DNA from: an uncultured bacterium
GTDB taxonomy: Bacteria; 4484-113
Direction of reading: 5' to 3'
Length of the DNA: 64,000 bases
Assembly: GCA_963749125.1 (NCBI GenBank)
Contig: CAVVLL010000006.1
Location: 27,409-91,408 of the forward strand
In this document: one piece after another, positions 27,281 through 29,926 of the stretch
Layout of the letters: each line of letters starts with the position of its first letter
How positions within the stretch are numbered: the stretch's first letter is position 1
Position numbers and translations under genes: made by a program
Notes under the pieces: model-generated
Told to the model about the DNA's origin: nothing
Seen by the model: only the letters and a program-made list of their open reading frames with translations
Database searches by the model: none

Positions 27281-28672
27281 TTGAAGGTGCAGGAATACGA
27301 CCTGATTGTCATTGGCGCAGGCCCTGGGGGCTATGTCGCCGCTATCCGCGCAGGCCAGCTTGGGCTGAAGACCGCAATCGTTGAGAAGCGGTATTGGGGT
27401 GGAGTGTGCCTCAATATAGGCTGCATACCGAGTAAGTGCCTGCTGGAAGATACACACCTGTTCTACGAGTTACAGCATTCAGGAAAGGCGCGCGGAGTGA
27501 ACGTTGACGGCATCGCCTTTGACTGGGCCGCCATCCAGTCGCGGAAAGATGCGGTCGTGAAGCAGCTTACTGGCGGCGTGGAGATGCTCCTAAAGAAGCA
27601 GGGCGTTGATAAGCACTTTGGAACGGCTTCATTCATCGGCAGCCAAACAGCCAAGGTGATGGCTGAAGATGGTTCAGAAATCACCTTGGGTGCCAAGAAC
27701 TTCATCATCGCAACAGGCTCCGAGAGTGCTGACCTGCCGCATATCAAAGCTGATGGGCGCGTAGTCATCTCGTCCACCGAGGCGCTTTCACTGCCTGAAA
27801 TCCCAAAGACGATGGCGGTAATCGGGGCAGGGGCGATCGGCCTCGAGCTGGGCAGCGTTTACTCAAGGCTTGGGGCTGAAGTGACGGTTATTGAATTGAT
27901 GCCGCAGGTGCTTCCCGGCGCTGACAAGGAAATGGCCGATATGCTCGCCCGCGAAATGAAGAAGTGCGGCACGAAGATACATGTTGACAGCAAAGTCTCC
28001 GCGACGGAGTTGGGCGAAAGCGGCGCGAAGCTTCATGTTGAGGGCAAGTTCACAGGCGAGGTTGAAGCTGAAATAGTGTTGCTTGCAGTCGGCAGAAAGC
28101 CGGTAACAGCCGGCCTTGAACTGCAGGCGGCGGGCGTGGAACTATCAAACAAGGGATTTATCCTCGTTGATGATGGCCTCCGCACCAACACCCCGAACAT
28201 CTATGCTATCGGCGATGTTATCGGCGGAATGCTGCTTGCGCACAAGGCCAGCCATGAAGGCATAGGCGTCGCGGAAGCCATCGCCGGTGCGGGGTTGCCG
28301 ACTCGACATGCCGTTCCTTCCATCGTCTATACCGCGTCGGAGTTGGCGTCAATTGGCTTGACGGCTGTGCAGGCGCAGGAGTCGGGGAAGCAAATCAAGG
28401 AAGGCAAGTCTTTCTTCCGCGGCAATGGCCGGGCGATGGCGATGAACGCAATTGCGGGGATGGTCAAGGTGGTCGCGGATGCAGAGACTGACGCGCTGCT
28501 GGGCGTCCACATACTCGGAGCCTCAGCAGGCGAGCTGATACATGACGCTGCAGTGGCGCTAGCGGCGCATATGAGGCTTAGCGATTATCAGCGCGTTATG
28601 AGGGGCCATCCGACGCTTTCTGAGGCTATTACCGAAGCTGCGTTGGCAGCAGATAAGCGCGCTATACACTGA
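27281..28672 (+). CDS. lpdA: Dihydrolipoyl dehydrogenase
   Basis: GAGPGGYVAA, GGVCLNIGCIPSK redox disulfide, GAGAIGLE, HPTLSEA. Confidence 0.97.
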   Translation: MKVQEYDLIVIGAGPGGYVAAIRAGQLGLKTAIVEKRYWGGVCLNIGCIPSKCLLEDTHLFYELQHSGKARGVNVDGIAFDWAAIQSRKDAVVKQLTGGVEMLLKKQGVDKHFGTASFIGSQTAKVMAEDGSEITLGAKNFIIATGSESADLPHIKADGRVVISSTEALSLPEIPKTMAVIGAGAIGLELGSVYSRLGAEVTVIELMPQVLPGADKEMADMLAREMKKCGTKIHVDSKVSATELGESGAKLHVEGKFTGEVEAEIVLLAVGRKPVTAGLELQAAGVELSNKGFILVDDGLRTNTPNIYAIGDVIGGMLLAHKASHEGIGVAEAIAGAGLPTRHAVPSIVYTASELASIGLTAVQAQESGKQIKEGKSFFRGNGRAMAMNAIAGMVKVVADAETDALLGVHILGASAGELIHDAAVALAAHMRLSDYQRVMRGHPTLSEAITEAALAADKRAIH

Positions 28673-28782
28673 AAGTCGGCAGCCGGCATTGCGGATGAGT
28701 TGTTGATAATTTGCACAGCCGATTTAACGCGAAAAGGTATTGCATTTGCGGATAAGCTGGGACATCCTATCAGTGGTATACC

Positions 28783-29119
28783 CCGGCCCTGCGGAGGGTG
28801 CGTTCCTTGAAAGAAGGCCAAGTTGTTCCCAAGAGCATCCGTGCTACGCATCAATATGCTTCGGTATCTTGTGCAAAGCGCGGCAGCTCTGGAGAGCAGG
28901 CGCCACCGGCTTCCTCCTTCGAGAGAGAGACGACGTTTGCTCAAAGGGGGCGAGACGACGCGGGTTCGCATCAGCCACAAGCTCTTGCGGCGCGCTAAGT
29001 CTAGCCCCGGGGACCGGCTCTCGGTCCTTCCCAGGGGGAAGGTGTAGGCGAGTCTTCGGAATCATCTATAACCATCCAACCAAGTAACGTTCCCGGTGAT
29101 GCAGGGCCGGCCCCTTTTT
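28783..29119 (+). ncRNA. Candidate large structured non-coding RNA (6S-like closing stem, otherwise unassigned)
   Basis: 28783-28792 pairs perfectly with 29101-29110; 28796-28809 pairs with 29081-29094; internal UUCG-capped and GC-rich hairpins; T-tract after the 3' end; overlapping short ORFs lack protein-like features. Confidence 0.6.
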
Positions 29120-29131
29120 GACCGTTGTAGG

Positions 29132-29150
29132 GCCTCCGCCAGGAGGTTTT
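29132..29150 (+). terminator. Intrinsic terminator downstream of the RNA candidate
   Basis: GCCTCC-GCCA-GGAGGT then TTT. Confidence 0.6.
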
Positions 29151-29156
29151 GGGTAG

Positions 29157-29180
29157 AAGTGCCGCAGTAATGCGGCACTT
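29157..29180. terminator. Perfect hairpin, probable bidirectional terminator
   Basis: AAGTGCCGCA-GTAA-TGCGGCACTT. Confidence 0.8.
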
Positions 29181-29245
29181 TGTTATTCCGTGCTCATCAC
29201 AGCAGCGCTAGCGTCACTAAAGCGCAGCCGAAGCCAAACCAGCCT

Positions 29246-29926
29246 CTACCTTAAGCGGTCTATTATGACGATGGCCGCAAACCAAAGGATTGCGATTCCT
29301 GCGAGGATGAAGGGAAAGAGAAGTATCCCGTCCCAGGTGTGGTTCGAAACACCATAGCGTCCGGTTTCGCTCCACATTAGCAAGGCAACGACCAATAAAA
29401 TCGCTGGGCCGCTGGCCTGGCTATCAATCCAGCGCGGGTTGATTTTCTCATCCATCTTGAGCTGCTGTTCATCCATCGCCTGCCGCAGGGCATCGCGTTC
29501 CGCATCAGCCTCGGTATCCACGTTGCCTGATAGGTAGTCGACGCGGGTGTGGCGGGGTAACTCGCCGTCGCTAGCAGGGAACTCCGGCGCTTCCCTGTCA
29601 GCGCTTTCGGGTGAGACGGGGACAGCTACAGCTGCGTCAAGATGGCGCATCCTGCGCGACGTAGTCACTTGCTTGGTTTTTGGCGAAACGGTGGGATGCT
29701 TCGCCCTCACTGCATCTGCGACTTCGTATGCGCGCCCAATAGCTATCGTAGTATGGCAGTACGGGCAAGTGCTCAGCCAAGGCGGATGGTAACGGCCGCA
29801 GTTCGGGCACGGGCTAAGCGTCATCTCACATTGCGTGCAATAACATTCGGGCATGCTCAGCGGGAAATCGCAAAGCGGGCAGACGGGATCTCTCTCAGCT
29901 GCCATTACGCGGATTACGCCTGCCAA
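29246..29926 (-). CDS. Double zinc-ribbon membrane protein (paralog 2)
   Basis: CPLC, CTQC, CPNC, CPYC plus two C-terminal TM helices; likely start ATG 29905. Confidence 0.75.
   Translation of the reverse strand: MAGVIRVMAAERDPVCPLCDFPLSMPECYCTQCEMTLSPCPNCGRYHPPWLSTCPYCHTTIAIGRAYEVADAVRAKHPTVSPKTKQVTTSRRMRHLDAAVAVPVSPESADREAPEFPASDGELPRHTRVDYLSGNVDTEADAERDALRQAMDEQQLKMDEKINPRWIDSQASGPAILLVVALLMWSETGRYGVSNHTWDGILLFPFILAGIAILWFAAIVIIDRLR

Follow-up and report, generated by a model that had tools for sequence, protein, structure and literature searches.

A probable new family of large, branched, stand-alone RNAs in one family-level lineage of a candidate bacterial phylum

It is rare for a new class of large, intricately folded RNA to emerge in bacteria, and earlier examples have proved to act as ribozymes, as ribonucleoprotein cores, as guide RNAs or as self-assembling RNA cages. 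The ROOL and GOLLD RNAs (~580–800 nt) are often associated with phages and multimerise through internal contacts. The raiA motif RNA, which is ~200 nt long and occurs in Bacillota and Actinomycetota, is conserved, structured and stand-alone with multi-stem junctions, and 6S RNA (RF00013) is a rod of ~150–200 nt with a central bubble, paired 5′ and 3′ ends and its own promoter and terminator. In the riboswitch-controlled non-coding RNAs (ncRNAs) EutX and Rli55, with their adenosylcobalamin (AdoCbl) aptamer, and in the kink-turn aptamers (SAM-I, lysine, c-di-GMP-II, T-box), a junction is closed by a helix P1 with a kink turn nearby. OLE RNA of the Bacillota (~600 nt) is a large, stand-alone and intricately folded RNA with invariant blocks and a kink turn. 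It self-associates (PMC9723947; PMC12286853), while ROOL and GOLLD are large ornate RNAs that form RNA-only homo-oligomers (PMC12286853). Here we describe an RNA gene that shares traits with each of these systems. It is found in a stretch of 64,000 nucleotides (the window) from an uncultured bacterium (assembly GCA_963749125.1, contig CAVVLL010000006.1), where an earlier note, made from the sequence alone, had marked a structured RNA of ~330 nt as either a much-expanded, branched 6S RNA or a new large ncRNA class.

Positions 28775–29119 (+) of the window very probably form a gene of their own, whose product is a highly structured, non-coding RNA ~345 nt long. The gene lies in a gap of 570 bp after lpdA (27281–28672), which encodes a pyridine-nucleotide disulphide oxidoreductase (a flavoprotein), and the gene on the far side of the gap (29246–29926) is convergent, with no Pfam family matched. 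The end of the RNA gene may lie at ~29185, in which case the mature RNA would be ~410 rather than ~345 nt. Folding of the + strand from 28775 to 29125 gave −156.8 kcal/mol against −131.4 ± 5.0 kcal/mol for shuffled sequences (z = −5.1), whereas the − strand of the same interval reached only z = −2.0 relative to its shuffles; the signal of fold stability is thus specific to one strand, which is what an RNA would show.

The RNA belongs to a family with three paralogous types, A (the window RNA), B and C, all sharing a promoter module and the 5′ start GGUAUACC. Blastn located the RNA in six further genomes from the taxonomic family of the window's genome. When all 24 genomes of the phylum were screened with R1, a covariance model of the 3′ domain, type A was confined to that family, and weaker matches corresponded to the paralogues. 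R2, a model built on sequence alone from the promoter and the initial 48 nt of the RNA, identified one or two members in each of 9/9 genomes of that family and in 0/15 of the other phylum genomes. Outside the phylum the search was narrow, covering 37 genomes of the same domain by blastn and one exact-pattern scan of metagenomes. Judging from the 24 genomes searched, the family appears to be confined to one family-level lineage of the candidate phylum. Within it, type A is present in genera g1–g5 (the g2 copy being diverged), type B in genome G004 and one metagenome contig, and type C in genera g1, g2 and g5, including the genome from which the window was taken (G000), with orthologues in G002, G005, G006, G007 and G008. 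The metagenome scan yielded five true members (L183, L200, L176, L168 and L190), which were confirmed with R1, and no true member was found in viral contigs by the pattern scan and R1 check. The type C copy of the window's own genome lies outside the window:

G000:C6:220034-220379 (L242:1573-1918), + strand: type C gene, 346 nt, with a promoter from ~219940

A single architecture was obtained in all genera from subgroup consensus folds and duplex tests. The 5′ octamer is followed by P1, a kink-turn-like loop, P2 and a three-way junction (P2/P3/P4), and P3/P5 encloses an inner junction bearing three hairpins (H1, H2 and H3). Its parts in the window are as follows:

28775..28782, + strand: palindromic octamer GGUAUACC, 5′-terminal and unpaired within the monomer
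28783..28792, + strand: 5′ strand of P1 (CCGGCCCUGC), pairing with 29101-29110; 100% of alignment cells pair and 5/10 pairs are compensatory
28796..28809, + strand: 5′ strand of P2 (GGGUGCGUUCCUUG), pairing with 29081-29094; 4/8 pairs are compensatory
28813..28830, + strand: 5′ strand of P3 and P5 (GAAGGCC, AGUUG, UUCCC), pairing with 29009-29030
28832..28890, + strand: H1, inner-junction hairpin with the tip GCUUCGGU at 28858-65, from subgroup consensus folds
28894..28942, + strand: H2, hairpin with CUUCCUCC...GAGAGAG and a recurrent C-A mismatch; 8 compensatory pairs
28947..29008, + strand: H3, hairpin from subgroup folds; 8 compensatory pairs
29009..29030, + strand: 3′ strand of P5 and P3 (GGGGA, CGGCU, GG-U-CCUUC), from subgroup folds and a duplex test
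29033..29077, + strand: P4, long irregular hairpin and best-conserved block of the RNA, with a UUCG tip at 29055-58
29081..29094, + strand: 3′ strand of P2 (CAAGUAACGUUCCC), from a duplex test and covariation
29101..29119, + strand: 3′ strand of P1 (GCAGGGCCGG), then CCCC and a U5 run, from covariation

The fold is carried by covariation in the relatives. RNAalifold predicted 71 pairs from seven type A sequences, and 32 pairs were changed on both sides, against 16.4 ± 2.5 in shuffled controls (0/500 reaching 32), a control that leaves relatedness uncorrected. With partners slid by 1–3 columns, only 7–12 two-sided changes were counted. For type C (six sequences) the corresponding figures were 28 two-sided changes, 14.9 ± 2.3 in shuffles (0/500) and 8–13 with slid partners. 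As the slid-partner control keeps the relatedness of the sequences, shared ancestry alone is insufficient to explain the excess. Pairing was seen in 89.8% of cells in type A and 90.4% in type C, percentages that are inflated because the structures were derived from the same alignments; the compensatory counts are less affected by this.

P1, P2 and P3 form in every genus with differing sequences, and the P1 duplex has an energy of −24 kcal/mol against −13 kcal/mol for shuffled strands. In P3/P5 the covarying strands read GAAGGCC/GGUCCUUC, GAAGGUCC/GGACCUUC, AAGAAGGGC/GCCUUUCUU, AAGAGGAGCUC/GGGGUUUUUCUU and GAAGGAUU/AGUCCUUC in the different genera, with UCCC/GGGA in the same region replaced by UGCC/GGUA and CGCC/GGUG in relatives. 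In H1, AGAG/CUCU of G000 becomes GGAG/CUCC in G001, and in H2 the strands CUUUCUCC/GGAGAAAG of L183 stand against CUUCCUCC/GGAGGAAG of G008. The 5′ strand of P4 carries the family signature AGGRGGAAGG-GU-GUAG and its 3′ strand UCAUCUAU..CAUCC, the best-conserved sequence being AGGRGGAAGGUGUAGG...UCUUCGGA.UCAUCUAU, while the pairs at its tip covary (GAGUC/GAAUC, GGUUC/GAGUC, GGGUC/GACUC). Type C follows the same plan with P4 arranged differently, the GGAGGAAG block being on the opposite P4 strand.

The homologue search proposed in the earlier note thus returned relatives in which pairing is conserved with compensatory changes, and much of the outer structure described there is borne out. Its closing stem (28783–92 with 29101–10) pairs in all cells, its second stem (28796–28809 with 29081–29094) is real and covaries, and its tips ATGC-TTCG-GTAT (28856–67) and GAGTC-TTCG-GAATC (29050–63) cap conserved hairpins. 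The interior is drawn differently here. The purine-rich stretch 28810–21, which had been taken as unpaired, forms helix P3 with 29015–29030, and hairpin P4 takes in the supposedly unpaired 29060–80 as its 3′ strand. Neither the long-range CAAGAGC/GCTCTTG pairing nor the hairpins GCTC-TGGA-GAGC, GGACCG..CGGTCC and TTCCC-AGG-GGGAA were conserved in relatives; in G001, for example, a change of CGGTCC to CGGACC breaks the proposed GGACCG/CGGTCC hairpin and keeps the pairing with the 5′-side GAAGGTCC, which is restored there with the altered 5′ strand GAAGGUCC.

The alternative that there is no independent RNA gene here, and that the region serves as a DNA-level element, encodes a small protein or forms the 3′ untranslated region of lpdA, is scarcely credible. 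Type A does lie behind lpdA, in the same orientation, in g1, g2 and g5, and open reading frames (ORFs) of 66–130 aa are present in the gap, all overlapping one another on both strands. However, the same RNA and promoter are found away from lpdA in g3 and g4, as are types B and C, and the compensatory changes are evidence at the RNA level. Between nine pairs of close homologues, substitutions are spread evenly over the three codon positions, with no periodicity of three bases, and every indel measures 1 or 7 nt and shifts the frame. No conserved ORF was found across genera in the RNA region. A protein-coding gene is ruled out by these observations, which agree with the earlier statement that the gap holds no credible protein.

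Upstream of the gene the following elements were identified:

28701..28727, + strand: distal module consisting of TGTTGATAA, then TTGC, N8 and ATTTAA (A/T-rich, UP-element-like), from alignment A3
28740..28768, + strand: sigma-70-type promoter with −35 TTGCAT, a 17-nt spacer and −10 CATCCT, predicted start G28775

The promoter, which the earlier note had listed as possible, is upheld by its conservation: all 13 aligned loci keep TTG in the −35 and A in the −10, and many relatives have a perfect TTGACA. The gene neighbourhoods behind this promoter vary, and the types have no protein neighbour in common. In all 13 loci GGTATACC sits 6–7 nt beyond the −10, and from this spacing the start is most likely the first G of GGTATACC, giving an RNA with the 5′ end pppGGUAUACC. 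The distal module, TGT(T/G)GATAA-nTTGC-N8-ATTTAA, is found at the same distance in the 13 loci, which include types A, B and C, and would be a shared regulatory site. Its form GATAAnTTGC-N-ATTTAA is unique to the window locus in its own genome, a looser variant being present at the type C gene. The 9-mers TGTTGATAA (28701–28709 in the window) and TGTGGATAA equal the DnaA-box consensus or are one mismatch away from it; every family member has such a 9-mer 65–95 nt before its start, in tandem in the case of type C, and TGTTGATAA has 21 occurrences in the window's own genome against ~6 expected. A reading of TGTKGATAA as a DnaA box was not adopted, as the incomplete genome has no oriC cluster with which to calibrate the box. 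A simple scan of the RNA region for consensus promoters gave a single match, TTGGCA-16-TACACT at 28643–28670 (+), which lies within the last lpdA codons.

The family is likely, to a high degree, to be new in the sense of being absent from Rfam 15. Scanning of the whole window against Rfam 15 gave no match at the gathering score, a search of 28600–29300 at E ≤ 10 gave chance-level matches only, with no 6S among them, and six loci of orthologues and paralogues gave no match at E ≤ 1. In these searches (window, region and six loci) the models of OLE, ROOL, GOLLD, raiA, HEARO and other large RNAs were without a match, and no similarity to any Rfam ribozyme model was seen in the RNA or its paralogue loci. 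ARAGORN detected neither a tRNA nor a transfer-messenger RNA (tmRNA) at the locus, and no description of such an RNA was found in the literature searched. The database search that had been suggested was therefore negative, and the absence of RNase P, tmRNA and signal recognition particle (SRP) signatures reported earlier is confirmed. These universal RNAs are located elsewhere in the family: RNase P RNA in 8/9 genomes (C1:20060-20451 in the window's own genome), tmRNA in 7/9 (not found in the own genome, which is 62% complete) and SRP RNA in 9/9. An identity with any of them was discarded, as no Rfam model matches here and their roles are mostly filled elsewhere.

The same applies to 6S RNA. 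A second, greatly expanded 6S-type RNA, binding the RNA polymerase holoenzyme as a mimic of an open promoter, would be stand-alone with an end-closing stem and internal loops, as is the RNA described here, and some bacteria carry two 6S RNAs. Against this, a canonical 6S above the Rfam cut-off is located elsewhere in 9/9 family genomes (C6:156101-156257 in the own genome), RF00013 gave no match even at E ≤ 10, and the covariation describes branched junctions in an RNA of 345 nt and not a rod with a central bubble. Because canonical RNase P, tmRNA, SRP and 6S RNAs lie elsewhere in these genomes, the expanded 6S put forward in the earlier note was rejected, and we regard it as extremely improbable; its other proposal, a new large ncRNA class, is the one that agrees with the silence of Rfam 15 on the RNA and its paralogues, the strong covariation and the location of the universal RNAs.

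The RNA also differs from its other closest counterparts. OLE is longer and occurs in a different phylum, and neither oapA/oapB-like neighbours nor a YbxF/L7Ae homologue are present in this lineage. Unlike ROOL and GOLLD, the RNA is chromosomal, is syntenic with housekeeping genes and was in none of the viral contigs scanned; its conserved 5′ palindrome could mediate self-association as in those RNAs, although any oligomer is hypothetical. From raiA it is set apart by the lack of a match to the Rfam raiA model.

Taken as a whole, the explanation that we somewhat favour is that of a stand-alone RNA gene of a new family whose product folds into a particle that acts in trans and binds a partner. 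The RNA would act in trans as a compact folded particle binding a protein, a small ligand or its own copy, and would act neither as an antisense RNA nor as an mRNA leader. Its anatomy speaks more for such a particle than for antisense action, for a role like that of 6S RNA or for service as a leader. The particle itself, considered separately, is a tentative proposal on which we are nearly evenly divided, inclining slightly to the negative.

Two features at the base of the fold bear on this proposal, the first of which is the 5′ octamer. It is identical in 10/11 type A and 6/6 type C copies, and in G002 the region reads GGUACC, so that a palindrome is retained. No conserved internal partner for it was found in types A or C. 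Type B uses the octamer as the 5′ arm of a hairpin abutting P1 (GGUAUACC-UUCG-GGUGUAUC), and the metagenome copy of this type has compensatory changes (GGUACGCC-UUCG-GGCGUAUC). This compensated hairpin indicates that an RNA helix of the octamer sequence beside P1 is under selection and, as types A and C lack an internal partner, in them such a helix is possible only between two molecules. The octamer would thus form an 8-bp helix stacked on P1, within one molecule in type B and between two molecules in types A and C, giving a dimer. Co-folding predicted the octamer dimer at −11 to −13 kcal/mol. Dimerisation of the RNA through the 5′ octamer is nevertheless doubtful in our estimation.

The second feature is the loop between P1 and P2. 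A k-turn has a Watson-Crick C helix, a 3-nt bulge and tandem sheared G-A and A-G pairs opening the NC helix (PMC9723947). Read from sequence alone, the two strands of the loop, N-GA-GGG and CCC-G(G/U/A)U-GA-N-GC, fit this definition:

28793..28795, + strand: non-bulged strand of the kink-turn-like loop (G-GA)
29095..29100, + strand: bulged strand of the kink-turn-like loop (GGU bulge, GA, U)

The GA next to GGG is invariant in nine type A sequences and 6/6 type C sequences, and the same sequences have the bulged-strand pattern CCC-G(G/U/A)U-GA-(U/G/A)-G. The kink-turn pattern was absent from the G002 copy and from type B.

A number of points weigh against the partner-binding particle. The sequences compared are few and closely related to one another (11 of type A, 6 of type C and 2 of type B), and the start, end and expression of the RNA are all inferred. 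Comparison of the family loci revealed no protein neighbour common to all RNA types. The predicted dimer would follow trivially from any palindrome, and the octamer could be partly a DNA-level signal, given that TGGTATACC, which always has C in place of the critical last T, resembles the extended −10 box of the lineage (TGnTATACT). The putative kink turn is common but not essential in the family, having been lost in G002 and type B, and no L7Ae/YbxF-type protein (PF01248) was found in 9/9 family genomes, so that any kink would need metal ions or tertiary contacts to fold.

Should the RNA instead be a ribozyme, the conserved core and junction nucleotides would form its active site. Its size, its multi-junction architecture and the invariant blocks in the junctions and P4 speak for this, and size, multi-junction architecture and invariant nucleotides have prompted a ribozyme hypothesis for OLE (PMC11332333). 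Catalysis is quite unlikely here, as neither a substrate nor a cleavage site nor any sign of processing can be made out, no Rfam ribozyme is similar, and the paralogues differ much in the core, with the type C GGAGGAAG block on the other P4 strand.

Features beyond P1 raise the question of a ligand-sensing, riboswitch-like RNA, possibly for a flavin. In this alternative, P1, stabilised by the ligand, would act with the U-run behind it to terminate transcription; in the absence of ligand, the polymerase would continue into a 3′ extension (g1, g2, g5) or towards ribE-ribBA (g3). A junction closed by P1 with a nearby kink turn is indeed the layout of large aptamers, and, as in the riboswitch-controlled ncRNAs, a possible termination point lies right after P1, with a conserved downstream segment that would be made only on read-through. 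A U-run directly follows P1 in most copies (g1, g3, g4 and type B; weak in g5, absent in g2), and a terminator scan matched 29093–29110 plus the T-run. The 3′ extension is located as follows:

29125..29186, + strand: 3′ extension with UUGUAGGG, the hairpin GGCCUCC-GCCA-GGAGGUU, GGGUAGAAG, the terminator GUGCCGC-AGUAAU-GCGGCAC and UUUGUU

This extension of ~60 nt is present in g1, g2 and g5, with an invariant first hairpin and a covarying terminator stem; both downstream hairpins noticed earlier, together with the T-run, exist and are conserved in three genera.

The neighbouring genes also point towards flavins. Type C follows ribF in g5, g2 and g1 (with a fragment of an insertion sequence, IS, intervening in g1), and in g3 type A precedes ribE-ribBA in the same orientation, 54 nt away in L168, besides its position after lpdA in three genera. 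Two independent adjacencies to riboflavin genes would be expected by chance at an estimated ~1 in 1000, before correcting for the after-the-fact choice of theme, and no match to the flavin mononucleotide (FMN) riboswitch (RF00050) was found at the RNA locus or in any of the nine family genomes. The flavin-gene links of the family are no more than suggestive.

The riboswitch-like alternative is nonetheless unlikely. For most copies, no gene in the same orientation lies downstream, the next genes in the window being convergent. In all five genera ribE has an extended −10 box (TGnTATACT) of its own ~10 nt before the start codon (eight genomes, L251–L258; G000:C5:38306), which suggests a leaderless ribE mRNA, and the idea that type A serves as the ribE leader in g3 is weakened by this leaderless-type promoter right before ribE. 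At 330 nt the RNA far exceeds known metabolite aptamers, being about twice the size of the largest, and two to three paralogues with a dedicated strong promoter would be unusual among riboswitches. In G002 the U-run and the kink turn are both missing, and the flavin theme was spotted after the fact. A scheme combining the particle and the sensor, in which a new class of trans-acting regulatory RNA particles would be paired via their 5′ palindromes (as A-A, C-C or A-C dimers) and would sense the status of flavin cofactors in a lineage lacking an FMN riboswitch, with ligand-stabilised P1 deciding between termination at the U-run and read-through into the 3′ extension, is decidedly improbable.

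A further alternative is that of a sponge of the CsrB/RsmZ type titrating CsrA via GGA motifs. A tandem-domain CsrA ORF is present in 6/9 family genomes, exactly those with type C, and type C is GGA-rich. The ORFs are:

G000:C11:118761-119078, − strand: tandem-domain CsrA
G005:C12:127306-127644: tandem-domain CsrA
G007:C82: tandem-domain CsrA
G008:C2: tandem-domain CsrA
G002:C51: tandem-domain CsrA
G006:C135: tandem-domain CsrA

This co-occurrence could be due to shared ancestry or to a functional link. However, type A is present in G001, G003 and G004, from all of which CsrA is absent, and its loops are mostly UUCG, with many GGAs arising from UUCG-GA stem closures or lying inside helices, unlike the recurring hairpins of CsrB, which carry GGA in their loops. 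Csr sponges are not known to have an ornate, conserved fold. As its GGAs are not displayed in loops and CsrA is missing from these three genomes, a sponge role was rejected for type A, and we consider it very improbable.

The RNA offers several tractable features, namely a structure backed by covariation, a probable kink turn and two to three paralogues per genome behind a shared unusual promoter module, with type B providing a natural 'intramolecular control' for the conserved 5′ palindrome. The restriction to one family of small-genome uncultured bacteria limits its general reach, and within the candidate phylum the RNA family is a compact structural system (~345 nt) and a marker for lineage-specific biology.

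Other genes recur near some members. An IF-2B-family gene (~290 aa) is located downstream of type A, and convergent to it, in g2 and g5 (L003/L005/L243), and an IF-2B-family MtnA-like gene (340 aa) lies upstream of type B in the metagenome contig L190; no such neighbour was found beside the RNAs in G004 or G000. In the window's own genome, type C is ~1.2 kb downstream of ribF with an rve-type IS fragment between them. IS elements or fragments with the rve motif HPRTNGKVERFF occur at G000:C6:218900-219900, between ribF and the type C gene, and at G000:C5:37600-38230, directly upstream of the ribE operon.

Two dispersed elements were met with during these searches. A loose pattern, GGTATACC-N8-AGGG-N5-8-YTTGAAA, matches a 38-nt element in many Bacillaceae genomes (loci L031–L108), sometimes in tandem, with four copies 186 nt apart in L074. 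This element is unrelated to the RNA and has no R1 match; among the loci matching GGTATACC..AGGG..YTTGAAA in genome contigs, 0/80 of those listed (out of at least 119) were R1-positive.

The second concerns the 3′ extension, whose CCTCCGCCAGGAGG hairpin is unique in the window's own genome and whose layout of UGUAGGG plus a hairpin resembles a dispersed genomic repeat. The extension may be a generic 3′ element, its interpretation as an RNA-specific domain being only partly supported. The repeat, resembling a repetitive extragenic palindromic (REP) element, has the form CTGTAGGGCGG(G/C)(G/C)ACC(T/C)GTG(G/C)(G/C)CCGCCG (UGUAGGG plus a GC-rich hairpin) and occurs at ~15 sites in G000, with 29125–29148 of the window as a variant. 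Examples are:

C1:20057, − strand: REP-like element
C1:66907, + strand: REP-like element
C11:44921, + strand: REP-like element
C14:23196, + strand: REP-like element

One REP-like copy is directly 3′ of the RNase P RNA, and the element may be a 3′-end or insulator signal.

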